Of a DNA stretch of 64,000 bases, positions 3,441 through 61,664 are shown in pieces. The translations under genes and the position numbers were made by a program. Within the stretch, counting starts at the first letter, position 1. The number at the start of each line of letters is the position of its first letter. The notes beneath the pieces are model-generated. The model saw nothing but the letters and a program-made list of their open reading frames with translations, had not been told where the DNA came from and did no database searches. This stretch comes from a virus, in IMG/VR virus record IMGVR_UViG_3300036766_000806, positions 27,048-91,047 of that record; one strand, given 5' to 3'.

Positions 3441-3977
3441 ATGGGATTGTTTATAGATAGAACTGGTCAACGATTTGGAAAACTTACGGTGATTAGAAGG
3501 TTACTTAATGATAAAGTTAATCAAGCAGTATGGCTTTGTAAATGTGATTGTGGGAAGGAAAAAACATATCGAGCTTCTAATTTACACAGTAAAACATCTA
3601 TGAGTTGTGGATGTTCTCATAAAAAGAAACCATTTTTATGGATTTACAATAAACTTTTGAAGAGAGCCGAACTCAGAAATCTTAAATGTGATTTAAATTA
3701 TGAAGATTTTATAAGTTTTACGACTATAAATGAATGTTATTATTGTGGATCTCATATAAAGTGGGCGGCAAATCCAATTAGAAAAGTAGCATATACTCAA
3801 AGATATAATATAGATAGATTAAATAACAATTTGGGATATACTAAAAATAATTGTGTAGTATGTTGTTGGGAATGTAATTGTATGAAACGAAATCGCTCAG
3901 ATATTCAATTCATAAATCACTGTAACAAAATAGTTCAATATCGAAAAATATTGACATTTTTTCAGAATATGATATAA
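3441..3977 (+). CDS. HNH-type homing endonuclease
   Basis: TGQRFGKLTV...CKCDCG; CYYCG, IDRLNNNLGYTKNNCVVCCWECNCMK. Confidence 0.85.
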   Translation: MGLFIDRTGQRFGKLTVIRRLLNDKVNQAVWLCKCDCGKEKTYRASNLHSKTSMSCGCSHKKKPFLWIYNKLLKRAELRNLKCDLNYEDFISFTTINECYYCGSHIKWAANPIRKVAYTQRYNIDRLNNNLGYTKNNCVVCCWECNCMKRNRSDIQFINHCNKIVQYRKILTFFQNMI

Positions 3978-6247: not shown

Positions 6248-6990
6248 TGAGAAGTGAACTTATTAGAACGTTAAAAGCCACCGCAATTGCCATTATCATA
6301 GTTAGTCTCGTAATTGGAGGGATGGTCGGTGGTATTACATATTCAGCAAAGAAAAAACAGGAGCAGGCTTTAAAACAACAAAAGCAAATTGCCCGAGATG
6401 CTATTCGTCAAGCACTTGAAAATTCCCAAAAAGAAACAGAAAAACTTCGACTTATTGATAGAGAGAAAAAGCAAAAAGAGGCAAAGCGACAAGAACAAGA
6501 ATTTTTCAATGCCAATTTCATAGTAGAAAAAGACGAAGTTAGAGGTCTGAGGTTTATTATGCCTAACCCTGCGAATGATCCTTTAGAACGAGAAGTAACG
6601 GGATGTGCTTTATATATCGGGGACAACTATGACGGAAATCCAGCTTTATTTCTTAGATGTGTATTTGTTGGAGAAAAACTTGATCATTTCGACGAAGTGA
6701 TGTTTAGGGCAAATAATCATACTTTTACGATTCGCAATGAAAACTTTAGGTTAATATCTCATTACAGAAATGAACATCGGCAAAGGGTTATGTATTATGA
6801 TTTTCCGGCATCGAGCGAAATTAATAAGGATGCAATTCGAGCACTAGTGAATATGACCAGCGAAACCAAATTTAGATTCTATTCATCTATCTATAATCAG
6901 GCGGATGATATCACCCTCTCTGAGCAAGATTTACGCCTTCTAAAAGCAGCATACAATAAATGGCTGACTATGAGTATTAGAAATCGTTAA
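6248..6990 (+). CDS. membrane-anchored hypothetical protein
   Basis: N-terminal TM helix, coiled coil, then globular domain; promoter at 6200. Confidence 0.7.
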
Positions 6991-6998
6991 AACGTAAT

Positions 6999-7235
6999 AT
7001 GGAAAAATTAATCGAATATCTAAACACTGGCGGATTCTGGTTTGCCTGTAGTAACGAACAAGATGAATTGGCTCGGGAAGCTTGTCGGCAAGGCATTCTC
7101 CAGCCCATCGAAAACCTTGGGGTTGGTTATCCAAATGTAAAGAAGTCGTATTTCTATGTTCGTGCTCAATTAAAATCCAAGTACGAATTGCCCATCGGCA
7201 TGTGGAATCATTTTATTCTTGGCATTCCGTGTTAA
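6999..7235 (+). CDS. hypothetical protein
   Basis: ORF track. Confidence 0.5.
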   Translation: MEKLIEYLNTGGFWFACSNEQDELAREACRQGILQPIENLGVGYPNVKKSYFYVRAQLKSKYELPIGMWNHFILGIPC

Positions 7236-26581: not shown

Positions 26582-29500
26582 ATAAAAACGCTACATCATC
26601 GAATGTATCCTATATCATTGTGTATGGGTGTCCTGAAAATCCTCCTGTAGGTGAGACATCTGCTTTCCTAAAAGTTGGAGTCACGACTGATCACGGAATG
26701 AACAAAAGGTTCGATGACTATCTTGGACACTATCCGGACAAAAAAATGTCTGATATTCATACACGACAAATCAAGTACGATCTCTCCCTATTCAGGCTAA
26801 CAAAAACCAACACTTTCCTGATAGAAAAAGTGGATGGAAAAAATGTCGAGCCAGATGAATTCATTCACAAAATGCTCCGTCTCAAGGGTTACAAAAATCC
26901 AGATAAAGGTGATGCCAAAGGCAAGCACAGGACCAGTGAGGTTTTTATTGATCTTCCGTGGAATGTGGTAGATGATTGTATTACAATCGCTATTAATAAC
27001 TTTTGGAACTGGAAATCTTGTAAAAAGGTTCTTTCTGCAAACAAACCTTCTCTCCATCTTTATCTCTGGCAAGCATGGAATATTGCAAAACGAGCAGATG
27101 TCAGAAGAGCACTCCCGAATGAAGATGTAATCGCAGAGTTTTCATGTCCTCGGTTCGGCAAGACTATCCGAGAGTTGTACGAGTTTTACAAGAGCGATAG
27201 AAACTTGCTTGTCCTTGTTCAATATAACCTCAGTCCTGTGACATCCTTCTTCACTGAGATTGAGTCTTGGGCAGAATTTGCTGAAATAGAGACTTATGAT
27301 GCCACCGATTCGTTGGTGGAGATAAGTAGCCTTCCTCCTGATCTTACGAATGGGAAGAAAGTTATTGCTATATCCTTGTGTGGAGAGAAAGACAGGGATA
27401 AGAATGAAGAATTCTGTAAGTACCTAAAACTTCACGCCGAAGCATCTAAAACTATCATCAAAATGGATGAGGTAGATTTTGGTGCCGCTACAGAGAAGAG
27501 CAAATACAAGCTAGAAAAGATCAAGAATTCACTCAAAGGAGTGAAAGTTGATATTTTCTCTGGAACCGGCGAGGATAAAGTCAATTTTAAGATGGAGTTA
27601 GATGACAGGGTAAAAGCATCTGCTATCAGAACTGGCTATATCGAGTTGCTCCTTATCAAACGGGGCACTCATTATCTGTTTACTCCGGAATACCGACTTT
27701 CTCTCGATCCTTCGAGGAATAAGTTCGAAATTGAATTCCTTGACAAAATTGGTGCCACTAATTATCGCAGTCCCGAGGGGTTGATTAAACCAGTTTTTTT
27801 CGGACTCAGCGTGGGCGATGATATCTGGAGAAATATTGACAAAGTTCATAATGAAAAAGGAGATTATGATCCTCGTCTTGGATTTGCTTATGGCAAGATC
27901 AACAAAATGCCATTCAAATATGTTACTGTCCATCAGAACATATGGAGACAATTTCTTGGTGTTGATAAGTTAGCCGGCGGGCGACTTGACTACAAGCAAT
28001 TTACTGCCGGCAAACCATTGCGAGTTATTCTAACATGGGTAAGTGCTGGTGGTGGGATGACTAAGGAAAAACTACACGATCTTACCGATGTCGTAGGCAA
28101 TGATCCGGATATAGCTAAAGAATGGTTGGTCGTTCCCGTTTGTGGAAAGAAAAAGTGGGGAGCGTTTAGCAAAGGTGGAAAAACTGCCACAAATAATCGC
28201 AATGCAGAGCGATTTGCTAATACCTGGATTGACCGTGCTAAAAAAGAAGGAAAAGGTGTCATTTTCTTTGCTATGATATTGGCTCAACGAAGTTTCAGCG
28301 TATCTCGTATTGATGCCATAATGTTCTATCGTGATGACCTTCCTGCGGACTCTGCCGAACAGAAATTATCACGGGTTCTCACACCTGGTAAAGATTTCTA
28401 TGGAGCAGACAAAAAGTGTGGATATATCTTTGATCTTTCTTTGACACCAAACTCATCTGTCATCGAAAACTATATCTTTAGCGAAATCAATGAGCAGGCA
28501 AGAAATGGCATTTCTGCCAAGGTAGCTGCTACCAAGTTCTTTGAGGTTATTGATGTGTTCCGAATGAACCAGCTTGGCCTTGTTGAGAAACAGGTAACGT
28601 TTTCGGATGCCGACTTTACTTCCTATGCCAAAGCATGTCGTACAATGTATGCTCGGACAGAAATCCGTGATATGGTTCTAGCTATGGGAGATATGGGTGC
28701 TTTCATGGACTTTGTTCGATGGGCGTCTACCAGGAAATCTCTCACCAATCAGCAACGGGATGTGCTCAAAGGGTTTGTTAAAGGTGCCAAGCTTAATGAT
28801 GGAAAGATAACTAAGCATCACCACCCTTCGGATGAAGATGATAATGCAAAGCGTCCTATAGATGGATTTACTCAGGCAATGGTACTTGCCCGTCGCTTGC
28901 TCTATGAGAGCGTTCTTAACATGGCAGCGATTCACTGTTCGGTGAAGAATATCAAGCTGTCAGACATCGAAAAAAATCAGATAAAGTACAGTGACATTCT
29001 TGCTACTATCGAAAGTAATCCGACCGCTTTTGATCTTTTTAAGGATCATTTTAAGTTCGACTCGGACGAACAAGCTACAAAGATATTGGGATACATTCAG
29101 AGGATGCCGCTGGATGATAAGCTTACTGCTAACCTTCATAGTGTCATTCTCGAAACTGCCTTCGGAAAGGATTGGAAAAATGATGATCTGAATGACTATC
29201 TTTACACGGATACTGACGATGGAAAAATCCACACACCAATGAGTCTGGTTGGTGAAATGATGAATAAGTGGATTGCCGTTGCCAGGGGACATAATGACGA
29301 TCCTCGTACAATGAAGTTTCTTGACCCTCACTGTAAGACGGGTTCATTCTTGCGATGGATACACCAGACACTAAAAGACGATGGAGTATCTGAGGAAAAT
29401 ATTCAGAAGCAGGTAATGGGAATTGAGAATGACCCGGTGTATCTGGTGCTTGCTCGGCATATATCGGGGATTGATAATATCCAGTATAAAAACTTGATTG

Positions 29501-38449: not shown

Positions 38450-38806
38450 ATGACAACACAAGAATACTACGACATTACTCCAGATAAAGATGGATGGAGA
38501 CTCCTTCCTAATGGGAATAGAATTATGCTTGGCGATTATGCCAAAATTGGCAATTATGCCACAATTGGCAATTATGCCAAAATTGGCGATTATGCCAAAA
38601 TTGGCAATTATGCCACAATTGGCAATTATGCCAAAATTGGCGATTGTGCCAAAATTGGCGATTGTGCCATAATTGGCTATAATGCCAAAATTGGCAATTA
38701 TGCCAAAATTAAAAATAATCAAACAACAGAAGAATTAAATAAGTATTTTATCAGTACCTATCCAGAAAAATCTATTTTTTGGCATCGTTTCAAAAATTAC
38801 AACTGA
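38450..38806 (+). CDS. hexapeptide-repeat (left-handed beta-helix) protein
   Basis: Ten I/L-G-[DN]-[YC]-A-[KT] repeats. Confidence 0.75.
   Translation: MTTQEYYDITPDKDGWRLLPNGNRIMLGDYAKIGNYATIGNYAKIGDYAKIGNYATIGNYAKIGDCAKIGDCAIIGYNAKIGNYAKIKNNQTTEELNKYFISTYPEKSIFWHRFKNYN
38529..38708 (+). repeat. 10 x 18-bp tandem repeat
   Basis: Unit TTGGC(A/G)ATTATGCCA(A/C)AA. Confidence 0.9.
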
Positions 38807-40802: not shown

Positions 40803-41440
40803 TTAATATCCCACCCCGTTAGATTGTTATTTTTTCAGTCCTTTGGTCTGTCTCATATTTATCTGTCCTGCTCTTAATATGTAAGTACAATTATATTCAC
40901 ATACATTTATTTAGGCTTACGGATGATTTGTTATGAAAAGGTTTGGTTAATTGTAAAAGAACTTCTTAACGTTTTATTTTGACTTGTTTTGACCTATCAA
41001 TAGATTATAGTAAAAAGCTAAATCATATATAAAAACTCAATTTTGCCCGTAAAAATAACATATTCAAGTGTATAAATATTCCTAAAATGCTCTATAAGCT
41101 TTAATGTTGCCATATAGCCACTATGAGCCATTTATAGGCTTAATGTGGCTATTAGGCTATTTTAGACATTATAGATAACATATTGAATAATCCTTTAATA
41201 AGCAGTCATTTGGAGAAGTTATTCTTAAAATAAGTCATTTTCACCGAGGGAGTATTTATAAATACATTTTATAAAAATGCTTATTCACCGAGGAAATAAA
41301 TATAAAAATACTTTTCACCGAACATTTTTATTTTTATATTCTGGTATATTTTTAGGACTAAAATTATTCATATGGACATTGAAATACTTTTTATAACTTT
41401 AGGGCTAAATTCACTAATTTCCAAGGGTTTAGAAATAAGA
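40803..41440. other. AT-rich non-coding boundary region
   Basis: No ORF >=60 aa; hairpin TAGCCAC...GTGGCTA; three TCACCGA and two TTTAG-NN-CTAAA. Confidence 0.7.
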
Positions 41441-42073: not shown

Positions 42074-42228
42074 GAATATGACTTTTGTAATTGAATTTAC
42101 CGTTAAGCTCAATGGGGGCGTTAATCCAGATGATGTCACCTTTGACATTGATCTTGTAAGGATGACGCCCAAGGATGCCAATAATGAGCCTTGCGGTCAT
42201 GTCACCGGCTATACTACCACTGAGAATT

Positions 42229-44429: not shown

Positions 44430-45011
44430 ATGGCAAAGAAAAACAAGAAAAGCAAGAAAACCAAGCAAGTCAGTTCACCCGAAGCCCGTGGTCCTGGTCG
44501 GCCCCAATACACTCCTACCTATCCCAAGGCCAAGAAGTGGACTCTGGCTGACTTCTGTGTAGCCAACGGAGTTAATCCGGAAACCGGCAAAGGGCCGAAT
44601 TGCTCAAAACTGACCTTGATCAAAAACTTGACCCGAGGTCTGTCTGGTCGCAACTCCCTGATTCTCCAGCTTGACGAGTATCGGGAGCCAAATCATGAAT
44701 CGGGCCTTGGCCGCAAGTGCAACGTTTACAGCCTCCGAGAGAAGGCAAATGTCGACACCAGCGCCAAACCTACCCAGGCCCCCAAGTCCGCCCGGACTGC
44801 CAAGCCTACCAAGAAACCCGCCAAAGTCACCAGTACTACAGCGGAGTATGAGGCCACAAAGGCAAGGTTGCTCGCCCCCGAAACCCCGGCTCCCGTCACG
44901 GTGCCTGCTGTGAAGGTTGTTACCCCGACTCCGGCTCCTGCCGAGACTCCGGTTCCCGCTCCTGCCGAGACTCCTACCCCGGCAGCCGAGACTTCCGTTG
45001 CGGCGTCCTAA
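44430..45011 (+). CDS. basic, Pro/Ala/Thr-tailed putative DNA-binding protein
   Basis: K-rich N-terminus, GPGRP, PAPAETP repeats; own promoter and terminator. Confidence 0.7.
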   Translation: MAKKNKKSKKTKQVSSPEARGPGRPQYTPTYPKAKKWTLADFCVANGVNPETGKGPNCSKLTLIKNLTRGLSGRNSLILQLDEYREPNHESGLGRKCNVYSLREKANVDTSAKPTQAPKSARTAKPTKKPAKVTSTTAEYEATKARLLAPETPAPVTVPAVKVVTPTPAPAETPVPAPAETPTPAAETSVAAS

Positions 45012-45148: not shown

Positions 45149-45994
45149 ATGATTAAGCCACAGAAATTGACTTTTGGCATGGGCAATGCCAAACTCGGGA
45201 AGCAGGTGGCCATTTTATCCTTACCAGCGGGACACTCCTGCCTTTTTGCAAAAGTGTGTCAAGCAAAAGCCGATAGGATTACTGGCAAACTTACCGATGG
45301 AAAACATTCCCAATTCCGCTGCTATGCTACCTTATCAGAAAATTTATTTAAGAATGTCCGGGCGTCACGGTGGCATAATCTTAAACTACTTCAAGCACAA
45401 AAGACAGTAAAAGAAATGGCTTATTTGATTGAACGATCTATACCGGACAAAGTAACCTATGTCCGAATAAATGCCTCCGGAGATTTTTTCAATCAAAAAT
45501 ACTTCGATGCTTGGTTACTTGTGGCAAAGCGAAATCCCGACCGTATCTTTTATGGTTACACAAAAGCTCTTCCCTTCTGGATTAACAGAATCAAAGAAAT
45601 ACATCCGAATTTTCGCCTTGTGGCATCGGTAGGTGGTACTCATGATTGGTTGATCGAGCCTCATAACCTAAGACATTCTAAAGTAGTTTTTTCAGAAGAT
45701 GAGGCAAAACAGATGCACTTACCGATAGACCATGACGATAGCCATGTATGGAATTATCACGGCAACTTTGCCGTTCTGCTACATAGTACTCAACCAGGGG
45801 GAAGCCTGGCAGCAAAAGCCTGGCATCAAATCAAGACAAAGGGTAGAGGCGGATATAAGGTAAGCTATTTTGAGCATTATGGGAAATCCAAAAAATCTGT
45901 ATTAGTGTCCGTTATCAAAATTTCAGGAAGAGAAATATTTTCTTCAAGGCGAGTCAAGAATCTTTTCAAGCATAGCAATAAAACTTATGCCTAA
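45149..45994 (+). CDS. Gp88-like phage protein
   Basis: GNAKL...SLPAGHSC...C...CYA; VRINASGDFF..Y..AW; FYGYTK. Confidence 0.8.
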   Translation: MIKPQKLTFGMGNAKLGKQVAILSLPAGHSCLFAKVCQAKADRITGKLTDGKHSQFRCYATLSENLFKNVRASRWHNLKLLQAQKTVKEMAYLIERSIPDKVTYVRINASGDFFNQKYFDAWLLVAKRNPDRIFYGYTKALPFWINRIKEIHPNFRLVASVGGTHDWLIEPHNLRHSKVVFSEDEAKQMHLPIDHDDSHVWNYHGNFAVLLHSTQPGGSLAAKAWHQIKTKGRGGYKVSYFEHYGKSKKSVLVSVIKISGREIFSSRRVKNLFKHSNKTYA

Positions 45995-46232
45995 GAAAAG
46001 AATTCCTTATTATGTGATAGCTGGCTTTAGAACAGAAGAGAATGACTATCTTTATTGGAAAAAGGAAGGGGGATGGGGAGGGGTAGAGGAAGCAACCATA
46101 TACTTTTCTATTCATTCCTGTTTACGATCCCCCCTACCCACAGGAGCCACTGAGATTGTGGAGTTCTCCCCCAATGGCGTAAAATCCTTTCCCATTTTTG
46201 AGGCCGAAAAAAATTCTGAAAAAAGTTATTGA
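45987..46232 (+). CDS. hypothetical protein
   Basis: Overlaps upstream stop; own stop is the TGA of TTGACA. Confidence 0.6.
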   Translation: MPKKRIPYYVIAGFRTEENDYLYWKKEGGWGGVEEATIYFSIHSCLRSPLPTGATEIVEFSPNGVKSFPIFEAEKNSEKSY

Positions 46233-46261
46233 CAATTTCCACAAAGCATGTATAGTTGAAG

Positions 46262-46460
46262 GTGCAAGATGAGCGTTGGATCTGGAAAATGGTTCATGGG
46301 TTCATCCGACATAAAGTGTGAAAGCTGGGCGGTACGTGTCGTAAAATAAAGTTAACTGCCTATTCTTAGAAAAGAAAGCGCCACAGGTGATGGCGAGAGT
46401 GATATGAGCGCAATATCCAAGTTGTCAAAAGGAAATACCTGAGACAATATCACCCCGGAT
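46262..46460 (+). ncRNA. structured RNA / 5' leader candidate (~200 nt)
   Basis: Promoter 46229-46256; several stems and two possible pseudoknots; no ORF. Confidence 0.6.
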
Positions 46461-46467
46461 TTAAAAT

Positions 46468-46746
46468 ATGAAAAGTAAATTTAAACTTGTCGATCAAACT
46501 CCTCAAGAAATTCCCGAAGTAGTTACATGGGATCATGTGAAATCACACGAAGGAATTTGGAAAATTGACGGAAGTTGTTCTGCCAATCTTTTTGTCACTC
46601 TCCGTACAAAAAGCCCCGTCGCATCAATACCTTTGATTACATTGTGGGTTAGTGATTATGCCACATTACCCGCCGATGAAAACTGGCGAGGATGTGATTT
46701 TGTTCCCGTCAGAAATAAATCGCTTTCAATTACATTTTCCCCTTGA
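46468..46746 (+). CDS. hypothetical protein
   Basis: ORF track; stop is the TGA of the next -35 box. Confidence 0.65.
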   Translation: MKSKFKLVDQTPQEIPEVVTWDHVKSHEGIWKIDGSCSANLFVTLRTKSPVASIPLITLWVSDYATLPADENWRGCDFVPVRNKSLSITFSP

Positions 46747-46775
46747 CAATTTCCGAAAAGTACGTATAGTGGAGA

Positions 46776-47525
46776 ATGATTTGACGGCGGAATGAGTAGA
46801 GAATAGCCAACGGTGAGACGCTACATCGTCAATAATTTATTCTTTGAACGTAAAAGTGCGGTCGTGGCATGGATCGAAAGATTCAATGCGAGGATCGAAC
46901 GTGACTAGTCCCGAAGGGGGCTAAGAAAAAATACATTAGCCTTAAATCGTTTTTACACGTTCATTGTTTTGCTCTTTGATTCTGCAATGGTGAATAATCA
47001 AAAGGGAATGTCGGCAAAGCCCAGGACTAGAAACGCCGCACAAAAAATACTCCCACCGTTGCATTAAACAATTTCGGGTTAGCTCCCGAGACACCGCATA
47101 TAAGGGGTGACAAAATCTGCGAGGCTGAACCTTTGTAGATACAAATCATCCGCCCGTTCAGGGGAAAGCGATCCACTATAGGATCGCCGGTGATTGTAAA
47201 ATTTGCCTCTTGCTCCTTTAGTTAACATAACACCTTCACTTGGGGAGTGAATCTTGAAAAAGAATCCGTAAAAGGATTGGCATTCGTCCATTTAATAGGG
47301 TGTAGGAGTGAGTGCGCTGGCTTGCCGCTCCCTTGAAAGCGAGATAGTTCAAAGCCATAAATAAAAGTACCCTCGCCCCGAAAAATGGATATGGGATTGC
47401 CCGTCGTGGAGTCTGTCAGGGAACGGGCAGTCCCTGGTTATAGTCCTAGGGGTGCATGAAAGCCCGGTGATTACAGACAGTCCTTTGGAAACTGAGGATT
47501 GCCTTTAGTCACCGGGCTTTGGCAT
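46776..47525 (+). ncRNA. large structured ncRNA candidate (~750 nt), class unrecognised
   Basis: Promoter 46743-46770; no + strand ORF; more than a dozen helices including nested long-range stems and pseudoknots. Confidence 0.75.
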
Positions 47526-47532
47526 TTATTTG

Positions 47533-47611
47533 ACGAAAAATGGACTGACATAAACCTTATCTTACGAAAAGTGGATTGATATAATTCTTATCTTACGAAA
47601 AATGGATTAAC
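47533..47611 (+). repeat. 2.5 x 31-bp direct repeat
   Basis: ACGAAAA(A/G)TGGA(C/T)TGA(C/T)ATAA..CTTATCTT at 47533, 47564 and 47595 (partial). Confidence 0.85.
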
Positions 47612-47772
47612 TGGCTTTCCGTTTATTGGTATGCTTTTTCCTTCAAGTACTAATAAAATAGTACTTTGTACTTATTAAGCAAAAAATTCAAATGTTCAAT
47701 TGATGATTATTTATATTCCTAAAAATGTTCTTCCTTGTGGTATGCTCGGTGAGATATACTACTGGAAGGGTA

Positions 47773-48730
47773 CTACGTAAGTCTGTTTTCTGTTATTTCA
47801 AAGAGAACTGGAGGTGCTGTAAAATAACCAGAATATGGAATTAACTCACTTTCAATATGAATTGGATCAATGTCATTTTTCACAAATCTAGTGGCAATTG
47901 CTGAATTGATATTATCAATTATTTTTCGAGCTTCATCTACATTACTGCATAAAATTCGTTTTGTGTAATCACCATTATCAGCCATACCGCTATTATACTG
48001 ATAATAATAATATTCTACTTCATACCTTTTCATAGATATCAATGTCTCCCTCTCGTAATTTTATGGCTTCTTTTCAATCACCACAGTTAATCCTCTTACT
48101 GCCTTAAAGGTAAATTCCTGACATCCTACCACTTCTTTCAATTCCCACATATTCATGAACATCATCCTTATAAAGATTTGCCATGTTACTATCAGTAGCA
48201 AATCCTTCTTTATATGTGTGGGATAAATTCTTGACTGCCAATTGAATTATGGCTCTAGCCAAACTTACGTCAGTAACTTGAATATAAACTTTCATGTTTT
48301 GGTTCTTATCGATGTCTCCCGTGAGCTAGGACTTGAATTTGAGGATGAGGGTTCTGAGAGTCAAAGGCTTTGTTTGCTGCCTCGGCTTCATATTCGGAGT
48401 TGCTATTACAAATGACAACCTTCAAATTGGCATCAATATTATTCGCCACTGCTCTAACACATCCATATCTGTTAATAAAAACAACAACTGTTGGATTTAT
48501 GGGAACGAATGCGCTTGCGCTCATGATGGTATCTCATCGTTGCTAAATGTCCCGACAGTAGGACGTTTGCCATCTTCCAGTTTCAAATAGAAAATTGCAT
48601 CGCCCTCATGCTGATTAAGATAAACCTTTTGGGCACGTTTTACCATACCCTCATAAGTTTTAAAAGGGCCAATCAAAGGCTCTGGTTCAACACAACGAAA
48701 AACCGGAATAATATAGTATTTAGTATTCAT
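47773..48730 (-). other. small hypothetical genes (47773-~48030, 48104-48295, 48306-48524, 48521-48730)
   Basis: Collinear minus-strand ORFs. Confidence 0.55.
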
Positions 48731-48733
48731 ATA

Positions 48734-49177
48734 TCAGTAAACACCACATTTGACGCATCGTTCCGTTAATGTGCTGTAAATATGCTCGCCTTTCCTGACC
48801 CGAATCTTGGGAGTACTCTTGGTCATCTTACCCATTGCCGGGATATTGAATTCAAGAAGCTCCACTAAACCATTAGAAATCTTGCTGCGGGAAAATCGCT
48901 TGAATCGGTTCTTGTCATGGACATCCAAGCCAATAACATAGTCTCGATCCATTGAAATTACCCGGACAACTTTGCCGTAAGTAATCCGAGCAAACGATGG
49001 ATTCTTATACGATCTATCTTTTGAAGGATAACAGAAAAAAACCAATGGATTGTTTTCCACGGGAGGGCGAAGAAGCGAATTGATTTTGGAGACCGTTTCT
49101 CCAACGGCACTCCCACCATATACCCGAAGTCCAGCCAAAGCCTCTTCCAGCAATTGTTTTTCAATAGCAATTTTCAT
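48734..49177 (-). CDS. WYL-like domain protein
   Basis: LVFFCYP...RVI...YVIGLD...RFKRFSRSKI resembles the WYL pattern; leaderless. Confidence 0.5.
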   Translation of the reverse strand: MKIAIEKQLLEEALAGLRVYGGSAVGETVSKINSLLRPPVENNPLVFFCYPSKDRSYKNPSFARITYGKVVRVISMDRDYVIGLDVHDKNRFKRFSRSKISNGLVELLEFNIPAMGKMTKSTPKIRVRKGEHIYSTLTERCVKCGVY

Positions 49178-49252
49178 AACGTTGCAATCTTATTATACCC
49201 TTTTCTCGAAGTTGTCAACAACTTTCTTGCTTTCGTTCATATTTATTTGAGT

Positions 49253-49882
49253 ATGGAAAAAATAAGCGGTATTTACAAAATAATAAACCAGACTAATGAC
49301 AAATATTATGTGGGAAGTTCGACTAATATTTCTCATCGGTGGCATGAACATAAAAGAATTTTACGAAGGAATTGTCATGATAATCCTCACTTACAAAATG
49401 CTTGGAACAGATATGAAGAACCTAATTTTATATTTTCAGTAATAGAAGGAGTTAGTATTTCTAACCTCCTCAATGTAGAACAAAAGTATTTAGACATAGC
49501 AAAAAGTGAATCTGACAAATGCTATAACATAAGTTTTGTATCAGATAATCCAATGTTTGGGCGTCATCATTCGGTAGGAACAAAATTAAAAATGCAAGAG
49601 TTAAAAATTGGAAAACGACATACACAGGAACATAATCAGAAAATTGCTAAGTCATTGTTGGGTAATACTCGCAATTATGAAAAAATTCATTCTATTGAAC
49701 AAAATATGAGAAGCTTGCCCTTGAACTGGATATCAACCAGCTTGAAAGTATTTAATCGGGTTCGATTGCTTGGAGCATCCCAGGTTGCGCCCACAATCAA
49801 GAGAGCAGGGTTGGCAGCTTGCCCAACGCAAGTCCATTCAATCGGGGGAGTTGAAGAATCGTTTTTGTCTGTGAATACATGA
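49253..49882 (+). pseudogene. GIY-YIG endonuclease with NUMOD3 repeats; C-terminus deleted, reads on antisense to the next gene
   Basis: SGIYKIIN...YYVGSS...R...H; HLQNAWN; EQKYLD; MFGRHHS; from ~49687 it overlaps the convergent gene. Confidence 0.75.
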
Positions 49883-52800
49883 CCAAGTATGTACTTTTCG
49901 CTAATGTTTAACATAAGAATAGATTATTCTTGGGTAATGGTGAGTGTTCCGTGGAAAGGTCGAAAATACTTTGCTTCCCACTCATCATGGTAATAATCAA
50001 ATGGATGATAGACAGGGTTTCCTTCAACCATAAATCCCCCGAAAGTATTTCTGTCTTTTCCTGGCTCAGTAATCAATACTAAAATGATATCAGAATTTCG
50101 AGCATACAAAGCGAGGTATGGATAGTCGGGAACCGAAAACAATGGAGGAATAGATTGATATGCAATTTTCATAGTTTATTGTTGATTATACTCTTGTTTC
50201 AGGAATTGTCAAGCAGGAAAATGTTTGTCAGCATACTCACTTACTTTGGAACAAAAGTCCTTATAGATAGTATTATCTCTGTCACCGCTTTTCTCCATAT
50301 CCTCAATCTTTTTTCTCAGTGAAGGACTTAGTTTTTTTAGCACTTCCGCACGGGCCTGAACATAGGGATTAGTAGATTTGCTTGCCATCACCGAATCCAG
50401 GCGTTCGCTTTCGTCAACAGCCTCAGCAACCACTTTTACTTCTGGCTTTTTTGCCTTTTCTTCCAGAGCCAGCAATCGTTCTCCCTCAGCCACTAATTCA
50501 GCAATGGTCTCTTCATGATCCGGAATTGGCAGCTTGTTATATCCTTGTTGCAGAATATATTTCTGATAGTTATTTGGGATGCCTTTGATTTTTCCATTAT
50601 CCTTCCTGGCCATAAAATTCCCTCCGATTCTGAGGACGACGATAACTGCTACCACGACCTTTCAATGGCCGTTCAACCCGTGTTGGCAGGGGCATCGGCT
50701 TCCTGATTGACTTGTAGACGGCTATCTGTGCTTTCATGAAATAAGTATGCCACAAATTGCCGAGAATGTCAAGGAGAAGATTAGTTCAATTCCTTTTTAG
50801 TTTTTGTTACCTTTGTTTTCACCGAGCCAATTTGCCGATTGAGTCCGCCCATGCGGTATTCCCACGTCCCTTTTTTGATTCCAATCAAGTTGAAAATGCC
50901 ATTACCTACCGAGGTTTTTCTGGCAAATTCAAAGTGATCTCCGATTTTTAGTTGTCCAAATGTCATACCTATTATTCTACACATGGACGGCGGAATGTCA
51001 ACCGAAAAAAAGCAAAAAATTTTCCTTTTTCCCTTGACTTTTTATCGAGGATCGGTAAAATAAGGGTATATGAATGACAAAGAAACTTTGGAACGCATCC
51101 TCAAGCTGATTGGTAGGGATGATGAACTGCTTGAAACGGTTGCCACTTGCATCGAGATTACTCCTGAAGAGTTAGGCGATTTCATTGATTTCGTGGAAAT
51201 TCCCGAATTGACCCGGAGCAACAAACAAGATGTCAAGGTGAACGCATGAAAACTAAACGCCAGATTGCAAAGGCCAAGTACCTCAAAAGCCCATACCATT
51301 GTCCCCGGTGCAACTCGGGTGACATTGAGGCACAACCACAAGCGGGAGAATTTAATGAGGGGTATAAAGGAAAGAAACCTACAGCTTCGATGCCCGTTAT
51401 TTGTCCGGATTGTGGATACCGCTGGATAGAGATTTACAGCCTGACAAACATAAAGGTCGAGCGCAAAGGCTAAAGTGCTTCACTAGTCTCGCCTTTTGCA
51501 GTTTGTCACCGAAATATCTCAAACAATTTTAGAACTATATTTATTGGTATGAAGATAAGATTTGTTAAAAATGTGTTAGTAGAAGTATATAAATCCCGAT
51601 TGGATGAAGTGTGGGATAAACAGTACAGAAGATGGGATGAGATAGAAGTTGATTCTATCTCGGAAGGAAAATTTGCCGATGTCCGTACAACAGAAGGGGA
51701 TGCCATTTATGGCATCCCCGAGATTCATTTGAAATGATTCGGCCTAGCGGCTAAGACGGAAAGCCTCGATGGGAAGATCGATGATGTTCCGGAGAAACTT
51801 GCCCTCATTGGCATTGAGCCATTTCAGGATTTGTTCACGATCCATTGGAGTATTAGACCATAAACCAAGAACCGTTTTGTTCCCGCCAAGGATATACTTG
51901 AGAGCATCGGGATTGAAGGTAGAATCTTCCCACCGTAATTGAAGAATCACAATATCCTCGCTACTGTGGTTAGGAAAAGTGAAAATATCTCCCACTTTGA
52001 AGTTGGTGATTTTTGGCCGCTCCGGTAGTTTCGGGGGAGTAGGCGGAGCAACTTCGGTAAGCAATCCCAAGAGAGGAAATAGTTTAAAGACTTCTGGTTC
52101 TATTGACATTTGGTAATGCCGGCCATCATGTGTGAAATAAATATTTGCCATAGTGCTTTTATTTTACAGGTTTTTGGAGATTTGTCAAGGGAAAAATTTC
52201 ATCAATTCTTTGGCTGCCGCTCGATCATAAGCAGGATAGTTTTTGTAGTTAAGAAATCCTAATGCTTTTCCTAACCAATTAAGATTAAGACCATTATCAA
52301 TAGCAATAATGGCATTATCATAAGTTATTTCAGCTTTACCAATGGAAAATGTTCTGATAAAGTTTTCGACTTGTCCCGAACAAGCTCCTTTATTTTTTAA
52401 CCATTGCGCCGTAATAATCATCTTAAAATCCGTTAATATAGGCATCTCTTAATTCACCGAGCGTAAACCATAAGGGCGTCAAGTGGAGAGGGGCACCTGG
52501 TTTCTCGAAAGCATAAGAGAAATGTTTTCGGAAAACAATATTCCATCCCATACTTTCCAAATAGGTAATGCACTCTTCCACGGTTGGCAGTTTTGTTTTT
52601 TCCTTATTCATCCTCGGCGTCATTTCCATCTTTGGTTAATTGGAAGAATTCCGGATCGGAAGCCTGTTCCAAAAGGGCATCGGCAGCTTGCTTGCCGTCA
52701 AGCGTTTCTTCGGAAACACATTCAACATGCCCGCTCCAATCGCCCTCAGTAATGTTGTAGTCAATATCTCCAAGGGTACATTCTCCAATTGGCTCTTCCG

Positions 52801-55800
52801 AGAGGATTGTCACCTGGACTATGGTTTTATGGAATTTTCTGTCAGTCATAACCTCTATCCTTTGATTGTATCTTCCGCCGCTTTGTTCAAATCGGCTTCG
52901 ATGGTATTTCGCCTGATTTTAAACCTTCTGCCGTACCAAATTTCGGCCAAACAGATTTTGCGTTTTGAGTTTTGGGCAAACCAATTCTTGATTTGTCTTA
53001 CGGCGGTTTTGGCCTCCTGCCTGATTTGCTCAGGTGGCAACCTTCTATATATATAGCAATCATAATACCACTATTATACCGATTTTGTGGTTTCTGTCAA
53101 GGGCAAAGGTTCAAAATCTTCTTCCCAAAGACGATAAACGTCATTTAGTTTTTGCTCGGCCAAGACATTCGGCATATCGTCAAAGTAAAAATACCGAATC
53201 CCGTCCTCATCTCCAATGATGGTAAGAATTCTACCGGATTGTTTACTTCTCCACTTAGTATTCATCGGAATTGATTATATCTTTTCTGCTTCTTTCGTCT
53301 CGGATAAGTTCACGATAAGATTCCTGGTCTCCCACCGTTTCTTCCATTTCTTCCCGTGATATGGGAATTTCTCCGAATTCGGCTATCGCAGCTTCCCGCT
53401 CTTCTTTTTTCAGTCTCCGTTTTTCAGTTTTTGTCATGGCGCTTTGGAAGTCATAGGTTTAATTATCGCATGATTGCGATAAGGTATGCCCGCTTTAATC
53501 CACCCTTCACAAGTAAGATAATTGCCAGCTACTTGCAGCATTTTGTTGATCTGATTAGTGACTTCCGGATCATAAATATCTTGCGGTCGGCATTCAATAT
53601 GAACTACTGAATGAATGGCACATTTTTCCGGGTCTATCGAAACAACTTCGACGTTTCCAACTCGCAATAGCGGATTCAAAAACGTTTTTCGATCAACTTC
53701 TTTTTTCAGGCGTTTTTGAACCCGCTCATGAAGAGCTTTCCAAAATTCTTCGTTGCCATTTGTCATATAATTAGGGATATTCGGTTATTTCGTAATCCAC
53801 TTTGTACTTTAATTTGCGAAGATCGATTTGTTCCCAAAGTTCATAGGGATTGATTTCCTGCCCCTCAAAGAAGTGTGTCGTTTCCGAGGGCATAAGATGA
53901 GAACCACAAGTTTCACAAGGCTCTTGCCATTCTTGCGGCGCTTCACAATCACGCAAAAATTTGATCTTCACATTTCTATTTTACCGATTTTTATGAAAAT
54001 GTCAACAGGAAAAATTGAACCTCGGAGGTTACGATTCCTCCTCCGAGGCGGTCTAACTGGCATTGCTGTCGTAGCAAAAATTACAACAGTTTCCCCCGCC
54101 GCTCCGGAGGAATGAAAAACCGACTAAGAGTAGCATAAACGCTCCTGGCTTCTCGAAGTCCAAAGCTCATGCGAACGTTAGGAGTCGAAAGAGAAAAACA
54201 TCCTTTTCCCTTTTTACGACTTGACGTGGAGACATATACCGTTATTGCTTTGGTTTTGTTAACTACTGTTTTCATAACTATTACTTTCTCTTCTGCTTGA
54301 ACTCTCGTGAATTGATTGATCCATCGGGAGTCAGCAATCCCTGGTCAAGGGCCATTTGGGTTGCGGTGACGTAGGAGTACATTCGGCGTTCTCCTCTGAG
54401 ATTCGGCGGGCCTTGAATAGAAATACCTTTTATCACCACAGACACGTTGGCACCCTTGGTCTCGGAAGCCCTTCGTACAAGGTTGAACGCCGTGCGGAAT
54501 GCATACGGAAAAGTGTCGCAGGGGATTGGCCCCGTGCCCGTATTTAGAATCCAATTCGCATTCATACACGATCATTCTACATGGTTTTTGAAAATTGTCA
54601 AGGGCGAAATTTCCTGTAGTCGGAAGGATGAACTGAGCCTTCCACTTCCGGATTTGCATTCCAAGCCGCCTTGGGAGTTTTATATCCCAACCGATGATGA
54701 AGATCGTACAGTTCCGAGTACATTTTGAACTCGGCAAAATGGGCATAATTCTCTTGTAGATGTCCACGCCATCCCTTTAATCCCGATTGGGCTGTAACAG
54801 TTTTCACGGTCTTATTATACTGATTTCATCGAAAATGTCAACTTCGTTTTCTAACTTTTTTCACCGAATAATCATATTCCTCTACGGTGGCTGATGTCTC
54901 GCCTGAAAGCGTACCATTATTCACCGCATCCCGTACCACCTGGTACAGATTATGCTCCAAATCCCTTGGATCGGTTCCTTGAGGATCAAATTCCACGTCA
55001 AGAGTTAGTCTGTATTTTAATGTTTTCATCGCATGGAAGTAAGTTTGTTAATACCAGTACGTGCCGCCCCGTCAAGTCCCTTGCCTTGCGTCCGGAGCAG
55101 TCCACCATTTACAAGGACCGCAATTCGCTGTGCCGTTTCAACTCCCCCGGGTACAGGAGTAATGAATTCATATCCCTTGCCATTACCGAAAACCCACTTG
55201 CGATATTTTGGTGAGAAGCCAAAGGTGATTGTCGCAAACGTGTATGTCTTTTTCATATTTAGATAGGTGGTTGTAGTTATTTTATGCCGACAGTTTTAGC
55301 GGCCATGAAATACGCTCTCGCCAGTACTGAAGTGCCCGGCGTGCTTTTGCCTCGCTGGGATGAATTTCCCAGATTGCCCATTCGCCAAGAAACTTGATGA
55401 TAATAGTTTTCTTCACGGTCTCTATTCTATTGATTTCATCGCAGATGTCAAGAACGATTTAATTCATCCGCTCGCCTTTGGGCCGATTCCCGGTATTTGT
55501 ACCATCCTTGCCATTTGACGGTAACTTGTTTCGGAGGATTAAAGGGCACCCATCCGACACCTTCAACGTCATCCCCCTCTATAGTGATTTCCCGTGGGGG
55601 ATTGAGCGCCAGGGTGTATCCATAATGTCGGGGAGCGTCGCCCAATTGTTTCTTGGCTCTTCGGCATGTAATGACTGTATAAGTTGTCATGCTCTCATTT
55701 TACCTATTTAATCACTGGTGTTAAGAACGATTTGGGCGCATTATCTTACGAAAAGAATATGATTCGTCGTAAGTAATAAGTTTTTTGCTCCCATCTTCCT

Positions 55801-59415: not shown

Positions 59416-60304
59416 CTGCCAACGGCGATGAAAGAAGTTAAAAATAATCGTTGACTATTTTCTCAGAATCGGTATAATGAAGTTGTGATATGAGAAAAAT
59501 CAAGTACAGCGACAAAGCCAAATGCCCTAAATGCGGCGGCATGTTATCTTATGACGCAACCATAACCGAGAAACTCCCTTTGGGATTTGGCTTTGCTCCC
59601 GGTAGCAGCAAGTTTCAAGTGGATATACTGGTTAGCAAAGGCTGGCGGGGTGAATGTATGGAATGCGGCGAAAAAGTGTTTGCAGTCGAGTCTCAGCGGC
59701 ATGTTACCCGTCACCCCCGAAATATCAATCGCAAAATCAGCCCCATACTTCAAGAGGCAACAGCATGAGTACAAAAAGTCCCTGGTCAAACCATGAACGC
59801 AACCATCGCAAAGCTGATTAAGGATTACAAGCGGGAATATCTGCGGGTGAATGGTCGTACTCCTGATATAACCGTCAAAGGTGGCTGGATTACCTTGAAC
59901 GGGTGCGAACATTATCGCAAAACCGAGATTGATCAGGCATTGATAGTGCTTCAGGGTCGAAAAGATTTTTGGAAAAAGTGAAAATTTCTCTTGACTTCTC
60001 TATCTAAATCGGTAGAATGAAGTCACGATATGAATAAGTTTAAGATTCAAGTTGTGGCTGGAGCCTACCAGATTCAAGTACGGAAGTACGCTGCCGGAGA
60101 GAATCACCATTCGACTGACAAGTTTGAACTAGTGGAAGTTGTTACTTGCCGGGTATGGGCAGAACAGATTGGCAATTTCAATCCTCTCTTTTGCCGCTAT
60201 AAAGGCAAGCGGATTATGGTTCATTCGGACGCTGGCGACTTGTCCGATCCTTTCCAGCGAACTGAGGATTATGCCAAGACTTTTTTCATTGAAATTGCAT
60301 AAAG

Positions 60305-60592
60305 CATAACGCTCTTTGAGAAACGATTTCACGTGTCTCCGGTGTAGCTAAAATACGCAAGGGCATTCGGCGCTGAAAAGAGCCTTGTTAGCCTTTGTGG
60401 TGTATGGCATCCGGAGCGTGATTAGCAAGGTTGCCTTAGTACTGGGCAATGGTGATTGTTACATGACCCCTTCCAGAGCTTGTGACGTGTGACTAGGCTT
60501 GTCCTGAAAAAGACCAGGGGCCGAAACTAAAATAAAAGGTGCTTGACTTAGCATTGGATTCCCGGGCTGTGAAATTGGCCCGGGAGTTTTTT
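60305..60592 (+). ncRNA. structured RNA candidate ending in a terminator
   Basis: GC-richer, ORF-free, several stems/pseudoknots; TCCCGGGC-loop-GCCCGGGAG-T run. Confidence 0.55.
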
Positions 60593-60810: not shown

Positions 60811-61389
60811 ATGAAAAATATAAGCACGATTCTAATGGTCAGTCAATTGGAAATGCTTGGCTTTCTCAAAACAAACGGTACGGCGTGCCGCTTTGTCTCC
60901 CTGGTAGCCGACACTCTGGTTGACAAGATCCGGAAGGGCAATCCCTTTCCTGGTCTCCGCAAGGTCTCGAAAATATCAGGACTCCTTAACGCCAATTACA
61001 ACACCAGCGTCCGGCGGCGGATTGCCGAAACTCTCGGAGTTGAATTGAAGGATGTCGAGTACGAGTCCGGGACTACCTGGTATCAGCATCTTACCACTAC
61101 CGAGGGGAAGCCCCTGCCGGTTGTGGTCAACAAGCGCACTCCGGATAATGGCAAACACTATCTGCAATTCTTCCCGCACAAGTCCAGGTACGAGTACGTC
61201 ACCCCCGGCGGCGAAGTTATCCCGGAAGAGCAAGTCCAGCCTTGGCTCTATGCCAAGCCCGAGCGCCCGGATTACAAGCCCGTTGTGGTCACAATCGGGC
61301 TTGAAAACGTCAAACAACTCAAAGCCTCCGGCATCATCATCGAATTTCCGGGCTTCGATGAAGCCGAGCAACTTTTAGCCGAACAGTAG
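60811..61389 (+). CDS. hypothetical phage protein
   Basis: 192-aa ORF with own promoter; followed by hairpin 61416-61450. Confidence 0.75.
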   Translation: MKNISTILMVSQLEMLGFLKTNGTACRFVSLVADTLVDKIRKGNPFPGLRKVSKISGLLNANYNTSVRRRIAETLGVELKDVEYESGTTWYQHLTTTEGKPLPVVVNKRTPDNGKHYLQFFPHKSRYEYVTPGGEVIPEEQVQPWLYAKPERPDYKPVVVTIGLENVKQLKASGIIIEFPGFDEAEQLLAEQ

Positions 61390-61664
61390 GATCGGCGTGT
61401 CGCCCGCATAAGCACCGGGGAGCGTATCTTAAATGTGGTACGCTCCCCGGCATAGCATACATAAGCACAATATGAATTTAACCTACTCCAAACTCATTTG
61501 GGGATTTGAAAAATGGTTCAAGGCCAATCTCGAAGAGCTAAAAACCCTATTTACTGCTGAGATAGCAGAACTATTCGAGAGCCTAGAGGATTTCGCTGTC
61601 GAATTGTTTGCCGAGATTCATTTTTCCACTTGACAAACCCTTACAAAACCCATAAAATGGCACT

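Follow-up and report, generated by a model that had tools for sequence, protein, structure and literature searches.

A candidate large structured RNA behind the GP88 gene of a jumbo phage

What might a phage keep in 750 nucleotides (nt) that hold no gene and lie directly behind a near-consensus promoter? This question is raised by positions 46776–47525 of a 64,000-nt stretch of viral DNA (hereafter the window), which comprises bases 27048–91047 of the 91,047-bp IMG/VR record IMGVR_UViG_3300036766_000806. The record is estimated to be 26% complete, which puts the phage genome at roughly 350 kb, and its source is an uncultured jumbo phage. A first-pass annotation, made from the letters alone, had proposed that the region gives rise to a promoter-driven, pseudoknotted RNA of unrecognised class. 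Our analysis presents the product of this region (hereafter the candidate RNA) as a plausible, unvalidated, single-member large phage RNA. More specifically, a stand-alone transcript of ~745 nt that runs from promoter to hairpin and acts as a structured phage RNA is the reading that we put forward tentatively, as a possibility still short of probable.

The near-consensus promoter claimed by the first-pass annotation holds up to the exact base, and its −35 and −10 boxes match the sigma-70 consensus at 11 of 12 positions (TTGACA-16-TATAGT). Moreover, this promoter is a member of a recurring phage-specific class, TTGAC(A/T)nTTTYC...GTATAAT/TATAGT, the 18-nt core of which is matched 14 times in the window (2.1 ± 1.4 times in shuffled sequence), with ~20 copies across the 91-kb record. 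At most of these copies the ATG of a gene is found 5–12 nt past the −10 box, and this short distance implies leaderless or near-leaderless early mRNAs. Unlike at the copies that lead into genes, the ATG behind the promoter of the candidate RNA opens just ATG ATT TGA. A second copy, at 46229–46259, is 84% identical to this promoter across 31 nt. Examples of the class in the window are the copies at 3951, 44359, 45113, 46229, 46743, 56441, 56750, 58267 and 59451 on the + strand, and at 54601 and 19006 on the − strand. The copy at 46229 is followed by a ~210-nt leader ahead of a 92-amino acid (aa) open reading frame (ORF), ORF92; the local folding z-score of this segment (46229–46467) is just −0.8 to −1.1, which lends a structured RNA there no thermodynamic support.

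The absence of coding capacity from the 750 nt, likewise asserted in the first pass, was confirmed with each of three genetic codes as well as from codon usage. Under code 11, no ORF of at least 75 aa is present in 46747–47772, which makes this the widest such gap in the 91-kb record, and the + strand of the region carries 15–17 stop codons in every frame. An alternative genetic code was rejected, as neither code 4 (TGA read as W) nor TAG read as Q opened a convincing ORF in the region or rescued a gene. In terms of codon usage, the ORFs of the region scored from −0.08 to 0.09, against 0.20–0.30 for the flanking small genes and 0.24 ± 0.06 for the training genes. No PHROG family was matched at E < 0.1 by any ORF fragment of the region, and for a spurious 70-aa ORF inside the candidate RNA the protein collection yielded no relatives. 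Also rejected was a frame-shifted pseudogene on the − strand, the four short ORFs in question having non-coding scores and no PHROG matches. Finally, the GC fraction of the region (0.41–0.52) is above that of the downstream flank (0.31) and only slightly above that of the upstream genes (0.36–0.43), a weaker contrast than in the earlier description of the region as richer in GC than its flanks.

The region also folds better than chance, and does so in a strand-specific manner. The minimum free energy (MFE) of the full-length candidate RNA is −261.8 kcal/mol, equivalent to a z-score of −5.72 for the + strand versus −3.24 for the − strand (20 shuffles each). When the terminal hairpin is left out, the remaining body (46776–47458) still reaches −3.63 versus −1.54 (70 shuffles). 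The strand asymmetry arises because 31 of the 236 MFE pairs are G-U, in agreement with the first-pass argument that such pairs favour structure at the level of RNA. Compared with 606 windows of 150 nt taken across the whole record (mean z of −0.48, standard deviation 1.36), the region, with a five-window mean local z of −2.58, ranks with the four lowest loci and shows the strongest strand bias. Perfect complementary runs of at least 7 bp number 23 in the candidate RNA (14.1 ± 3.5 in shuffles), and those of at least 8 bp number 7 (3.6 ± 2.0 in shuffles). Since shuffles contain runs of 6–8 bp about as often, the four crossing pairings of that length on which the proposed pseudoknots were built individually carry no weight, and the pseudoknots do not survive as anything above chance level. 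All 12 of the stem and pairing motifs named in the first pass were recovered at their exact coordinates, but several of the stems, notably in the 5′ half, have an ensemble probability below 0.5.

Elsewhere in the record, very low z-scores on both strands (−5 to −7) at 38504–38803 and 61304–61453 of the window suggest hairpins or terminators. A segment straddling the start of the window (window −196 to 253; record 26851–27300) has z-scores of −3.6 to −4.8 on the + strand only and lies inside a coding-like ORF of 234 aa, and local z-scores of −0.5 and +1.1 at 60254–60553 give no support to a 290-nt pseudoknot RNA at 60305–60592 of the window.

In the predicted fold, stability and definition are unevenly spread over the domains (Table 1). 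The 5′ domain (46776–47067) has a z-score of −2.53 on the + strand versus −0.99 on the − strand. The central cluster displays the lowest local z-scores within the body of the RNA (−4.35 to −5.15 for 150 nt), with an ensemble diversity that is not unusual. For the 3′ domain, helix probabilities range from 0.76 to 0.94 and the z-score is −2.88 on the + strand (none of 200 shuffles being as stable) versus −1.58 on the − strand, while its ensemble diversity amounts to 0.105 per nt, against 0.237 ± 0.071 for shuffles (none of 80 being as low). The terminal hairpin has a predicted energy of −47 kcal/mol and a z-score of −6.45 (47440–47545). According to these models, the closed 3′ domain and the 62-nt terminal hairpin are the best-defined parts of the candidate RNA, and the 255-nt 3′ domain would be its most credible folded module. 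The modelled hairpin is terminator-like and may work in both directions. The genes on the + strand end at 46746 and those on the − strand run from 47773 on, which places the candidate RNA at a convergent junction.

Table 1. Positions of the candidate RNA, its predicted parts, its neighbours and the RNAs found in related records (window coordinates unless a record is named).
Feature	Position	Strand	Remarks
Sigma-70-type promoter	46743–46770	+	−35 TTGACA 46743–46748; 16-nt spacer; −10 TATAGT 46765–46770
Predicted transcript start (~46777) and two-codon mini-ORF ATG ATT TGA	46776–46784	+	Start inferred from sequence
5′ domain, ~290 nt	46777–47066	+	In the MFE fold, first 15 nt pair with 47050–47066, closing the domain
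GAAA-capped hairpin in 5′ domain	46859–46897	+	
Central cluster of four local hairpins	47072–47091, 47092–47109, 47115–47140, 47168–47187	+	Pair probabilities 0.75–1.0
3′ domain, 255 nt	47204–47458	+	Closed by helices 47209–47221/47446–47458 and 47225–47231/47437–47444
Elements inside 3′ domain	47235–47251, 47263–47278, 47286–47390, 47393–47434	+	Two hairpins, a branched sub-domain and a hairpin, respectively
Terminal 26-bp hairpin, GAAA-type loop	47459–47520	+	Probability 0.96; 5′ flank AAA, 3′ flank UUUGGCAUUUAUUU
Three tandem 31-nt direct repeats	47526–47618	+	Core ACGAAAA(A/G)TGGA; 65–77% alike
AT-rich spacer	47619–47772		GC ~0.31; up to the stop codon of the − strand gene 47773–48042
GP88-family gene (Pfam PF17338)	45149–45994		0.8 kb upstream of candidate RNA
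ORF92 (92 aa)	46468–46746	+	Directly upstream of candidate RNA; gene-like codon usage
Gene convergent with candidate RNA	47773–48042	−	
Free-standing GIY-YIG/NUMOD3 homing endonuclease gene	49154–49882		1.6 kb from candidate RNA
120-nt tRNA-like RNA	L240:7144–7263		Identical in L241; 48-nt insert in anticodon arm, 12-nt variable region
~230-nt small RNA, copies	L240:7330–7600; L241:5403–5673; L245:12441–12740		
~230-nt small RNA, further matches	G037:C1:43966–44023; G044:C1:54076–54168; G045:C1:184173–184265		

The position of the candidate RNA behind the GP88 gene was compared with the corresponding slot in related phages. The nearest accessible relatives, two records termed L240 and L241, have a GP88 protein with 60% identity and share five genes with the window, i.e., homologues of 44430–45011, of GP88, of the GIY-YIG gene, of 50209–50655 and of 54281–54565. 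The first of these, a 193-aa ORF, has a GC fraction of 0.55–0.63 in a genome of ~40% GC, and its homologues adjoin GP88 in L240 and in three other records (L245, L246 and L259). In both L240 and L241, an ORF-free gap of 908 nt opens ~0.7 kb after GP88 and contains, in this order, a 120-nt RNA resembling a transfer RNA (tRNA), a promoter of the phage class, an RNA of ~230 nt ending in a terminator, and AT-rich DNA with repeated CACCGAA motifs. The tRNA-like RNA reaches 35 bits with the tRNA model of Rfam and is left uncalled by ARAGORN. The ~230-nt small RNA (sRNA) belongs to no Rfam family and is conserved from L240 and L241 to L245 with compensatory changes in three helices; a covariance model of this three-helix core (R2) also recovered copies from L259, where they occupy this slot, and from other places in two more records. 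When R2 was run against the window with filters off, its best match reached 14.6 bits (E of 0.2) at 45946 and nothing was found in 46776–47525. Pairwise alignment of the sRNA with the candidate RNA likewise remained at shuffle level. The sRNA therefore differs from the candidate RNA in showing no detectable homology to it and in being three times shorter, whereas it resembles it in its position after GP88 and in the succession of promoter, structured RNA, terminator hairpin and AT-rich repeat DNA.

Moreover, tRNA genes are found 0.3–4 kb from GP88 in at least eight related records (L004, L006, L011, L014, L018, L251, L253 and L254). By sequence comparison, this phage group has a variable island of stable RNAs in the slot after GP88. 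That relatives hold RNA genes in this slot favours an RNA gene at the candidate locus as well, and it parallels the placement of GOLLD and ROOL, phage and prophage RNAs that occur "often near tRNA islands" (bioRxiv 10.1101/2024.12.08.627333).

The locus thus combines a promoter motif, an absence of coding capacity, folding that exceeds chance in a strand-specific way, and synteny with RNA genes, and the stand-alone transcript that we tentatively prefer can be pictured as follows. Transcription would be started near 46777 by the phage-class sigma-70 promoter (46743–46770), and the resulting RNA of ~745 nt, encoding no protein, would run to the very stable hairpin at 47459–47520. It is predicted to fold into a 5′ domain that is loosely defined, a central group of hairpins, and a 3′ domain that is closed and well defined. 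Because the slot is one in which relatives keep tRNAs and small stable RNAs, the product is read as a stable, trans-acting structured RNA. By analogy, its likeliest role might be that of a scaffold or decoy binding a host or phage protein or RNA, and this binder or scaffold function could be tied to the RNA and tRNA biology of the phage.

Relatives of the candidate RNA were sought in ~190 neighbourhoods of GP88 genes, 54 whole related virus records, GenBank phages and RaK2. The neighbourhoods searched with the RNA consisted of 35 IMG/VR, 80 metagenome and 73 further IMG/VR loci, the latter found with an alignment of the closest GP88 proteins as the query and extending up to 60% GP88 identity; three loci on metagenome-assembled genomes were outside the search. 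The whole related records were taken as a set of 18 and then one of 36, sixteen of them being estimated at least 90% complete and several measuring 365–389 kb. Neither nhmmer nor blastn returned a match in the GP88 neighbourhoods, and BLAST found none in the 18 and 36 whole records. A blastn search of 50,697 GenBank phage records was equally negative, and the candidate RNA is present as a single copy, without paralogues, in its own record.

Covariance models of the 3′ sub-domain (R1, 47283–47436) and of the central hairpins (R3, 47068–47192) retrieved only the query itself from sets of 10, 36 and 42 records, a weak test given that each model was built from one sequence; R1, with the same weakness, did not match the RaK2 record. 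Scans of IMG/VR yielded one unrelated giant-virus tandem repeat for a word scan with the repeat pair, 69 chance matches for a pattern combining a helix and a 12-mer, nine unrelated contigs for the promoter motif, and one chance match for a 16-mer from the candidate RNA. Closer GP88 relatives (65–68% identity) are confined to contigs from ENA, Logan and JGI. Three other GP88 relatives (G001–G003) were rejected as close kin, as only a few genes are common to them and the window, at 30–50% identity. The "class" of RNA proposed in the first pass consequently did not materialise: none of the collections searched gave a second member, and hence there is no covariation and no family.

Several of these results weigh against a functional RNA at this locus. 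No homologue was found, and since the closest accessible relatives hold different RNAs in the slot, the candidate sequence is not conserved even at the family level. ORF92, directly upstream, is an ORFan too (with zero relatives among 5.8 billion proteins and none in IMG/VR), and the DNA of this entire patch may therefore be young or evolving fast. Some other loci with low z-scores sit in coding-like ORFs of the same record, and z alone is therefore not decisive. Furthermore, the 5′ half is poorly determined, with few helices at a probability of at least 0.7 and an ensemble diversity that is not unusual, and the terminal hairpin has no canonical U-run and fails the T-run rule for terminators.

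The main rival explanation, unlikely in our estimation, draws on much of the same evidence and regards the region as part of a hypervariable accessory island where the DNA has no function or is decaying, i.e., a lost gene or an import behind an active or fossil promoter, with its foldability being a by-product of composition and of the terminator hairpin. The orphan status of the candidate sequence in every collection searched and that of ORF92 would fit such a patch, as would the ill-defined 5′ half, and ATG ATT TGA after the promoter would fit a lost gene start. Much of the full-length z-score indeed stems from the terminal hairpin (from −5.7 to −3.6 without it), and coding regions of the record reach similar local values. 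Nevertheless, the body by itself retains its z-score of −3.6 with a clear strand asymmetry, and the 3′ domain is unusually well defined. The 15–17 stops per frame on the + strand are too many for a recent decay, there is no frame-shifted trail of coding sequence, and the ORF fragments are without any PHROG match at the threshold given above. In addition, phages seldom retain as much as 750 nt of junk DNA after a promoter of consensus type.

The uneven definition of the domains bears on a further explanation, namely a composite or cis-acting locus, which we regard as quite unlikely. Here, either an RNA of ~320 nt (the 3′ domain plus hairpin) would follow a leader, or the region would serve as a structured buffer or bidirectional terminator that insulates two convergent units. 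Good definition is confined to the 3′ domain and the terminal hairpin, the RNAs of relatives in the slot measure just 120–230 nt, and the region sits exactly where + and − strand genes converge, ending in a symmetric hairpin that is preceded by an A-run and followed by a U-run. However, no internal promoter with at least 10 of 12 consensus matches was found within 46776–47525, and 750 nt is far beyond the need of an insulator. Moreover, the predicted 5′ end pairs with 47050–47066 and would thereby close a domain from the predicted start site onwards.

The DNA downstream of the hairpin was considered in turn. The core of the direct repeats found there has 5 matches in the window against 1.07 expected, and the 12-mer of this core, CGAAAAATGGAT, is also the 3′ strand of helix 47286/47383 within the candidate RNA. 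Other repeat motifs were encountered around the GP88 gene of other records and at a distance in this one. The motif TTCACCGAA is repeated directly after the terminator of the ~230-nt sRNA in L240 and L245, and a third record, L242, carries a 1.3-kb AT-rich tandem-repeat region near GP88 and has five tandem repeats of ~45 nt containing TTTCACCAATTT at 6900–7140. In the window itself, 40803–41428 is AT-rich, free even of ORFs of 50 aa, and bears three TTCACCGA(G/A) repeats at 41230–41325. The TTCACCGA, TTCACCGAA and TTTCACCAATTT repeats are candidate origin or regulator-binding sites.

The region might give rise to an origin-proximal transcript, i.e., a structured pre-primer or activator RNA directed towards the repeat-bearing AT-rich DNA at 47526–47772, although we consider this very unlikely. 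Models for an origin of this kind are RNA II of ColE1 and the origins of T4 and T7 that combine a promoter with an unwinding element. The three direct repeats and the AT-rich DNA (GC of 0.31) begin 6 nt past the hairpin, their core CGAAAAATGGAT is found again in a helix strand of the RNA, and AT-rich DNA with repeated TTCACCGAA likewise comes after the sRNA of L240 and L245. L242 has its AT-rich tandem repeats near GP88. ColE1 RNA II is similarly a structured transcript of several hundred nt that has its own promoter and reads towards AT-rich repeat DNA. In contrast to RNA II, the candidate RNA has a strong hairpin before the repeats, which would stop most transcripts, and no evident antisense partner resembling RNA I; plasmid-type origin features, at which no search was aimed, were not seen either. 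The surrounding genes converge on the site instead of diverging from it, and no replication gene is adjacent. The repeats, moreover, are just 65–77% alike, and the TTCACCGA motif of the relatives is 6 kb away in this phage (41230–41325).

With regard to known RNA families, Rfam 15 gave no matches across the whole window at gathering thresholds (cmscan), and two chance microRNA matches only when 46400–47900 was scanned at E ≤ 10. At that same permissive cut-off, the candidate RNA was not matched by the models of GOLLD (RF01998), ROOL (RF03087), OLE, HEARO/omega-RNA or raiA, nor by those of group I (RF00028) and group II (RF00029, D1–D4) introns. Neither the Rfam models nor, for tRNA and transfer-messenger RNA (tmRNA), ARAGORN detected tmRNA, RNase P, signal recognition particle RNA, 6S RNA or tRNA at the locus. 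GOLLD, ROOL, OLE, HEARO, raiA, introns, RNase P and tmRNA are thereby excluded as far as the models reach, and the first-pass statement that the RNA falls in no recognised family is upheld by the cmscan at E ≤ 10. A degenerate tRNA array was rejected as well, with no match from Rfam (E ≤ 10) or ARAGORN. In the literature, no description of such an RNA was found.

These negatives also bear on whether the region is a remnant of a self-splicing intron or mobile RNA element (a group I or II intron, or a guide RNA associated with an insertion sequence). What could hint at this origin is the GIY-YIG/NUMOD3 homing endonuclease gene 1.6 kb away, together with a GTGCG at 46856. However, no intron, HEARO/omega-RNA or ribozyme model matches at E ≤ 10, and no gene for a reverse transcriptase, maturase, TnpB or IscB is adjacent, the neighbouring genes of the candidate RNA being devoid of IscB and TnpB domains. 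As the first-pass annotation had noted, no interrupted host gene is visible either: longer homologues of ORF92 do not turn up, and the downstream side is free of ORFs that look like an exon. These results nearly exclude a remnant of an intron or mobile element.

Under the stand-alone reading, the closest counterparts of the candidate RNA would be GOLLD and ROOL, which were recently shown to build RNA-only cages and of which the function is still obscure. To our knowledge, large structured RNAs that do without a protein partner are uncommon. The candidate RNA resembles both in being large (~750 nt versus roughly 800 and 580 nt, respectively), non-coding, phage-borne and multi-domain, and may occupy the niche of a phage stable-RNA or tRNA island, given the tRNAs in the same slot of its relatives. 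Its 3′ part is the better defined one, as described for GOLLD. It differs from both in that no covariance model matches it at E ≤ 10, in that its 91-kb record contains no tRNA, and in being a single known copy that lacks covariation support. A more far-reaching proposal, namely that it is the first member of a new family of ~750-nt, multi-domain, GOLLD/ROOL-like ornate RNAs of uncultured jumbo phages, which act through their fold and are made early from a host-type promoter in a stable-RNA island, appears doubtful to us. If real, the candidate RNA would represent a new family among large structured phage RNAs; it fails the model tests of the named families.

The wider surroundings of the candidate RNA can be summarised briefly. 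The record is an accessory-gene region; among its products are enzymes for the salvage of nicotinamide adenine dinucleotide (NAD), a T4-type RNA ligase, DnaJ and an AAA ATPase; a 293-aa gene at 42175 has no relatives in IMG/VR. The part of the record ahead of the window (1–27047) encodes a PARP-like protein with WGR and regulatory domains, a Ser/Thr kinase, the tRNA-His guanylyltransferase Thg1, a DUF2828/DUF7788 protein, a 428-aa thymidylate synthase (ThyA) and a DNA ligase. Despite the presence of Thg1 and the T4-type RNA ligase, ARAGORN called no tRNA or tmRNA genes in the whole 91-kb record.

As it consists of one sequence on one metagenomic contig, the candidate RNA has its value as a lead. 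If the stand-alone transcript is real, the contents of the slot after GP88 can vary from tRNAs and tRNA-like RNAs to a 230-nt sRNA or a 750-nt RNA. Contents of this kind would suggest a function that these RNAs share, that is exchangeable among them and that is linked to the biology of tRNA or translation; Thg1 and a T4-type RNA ligase are encoded in the same record. Moreover, any large phage RNA that is independent of those known provides a further handle on what such RNAs do in infection.

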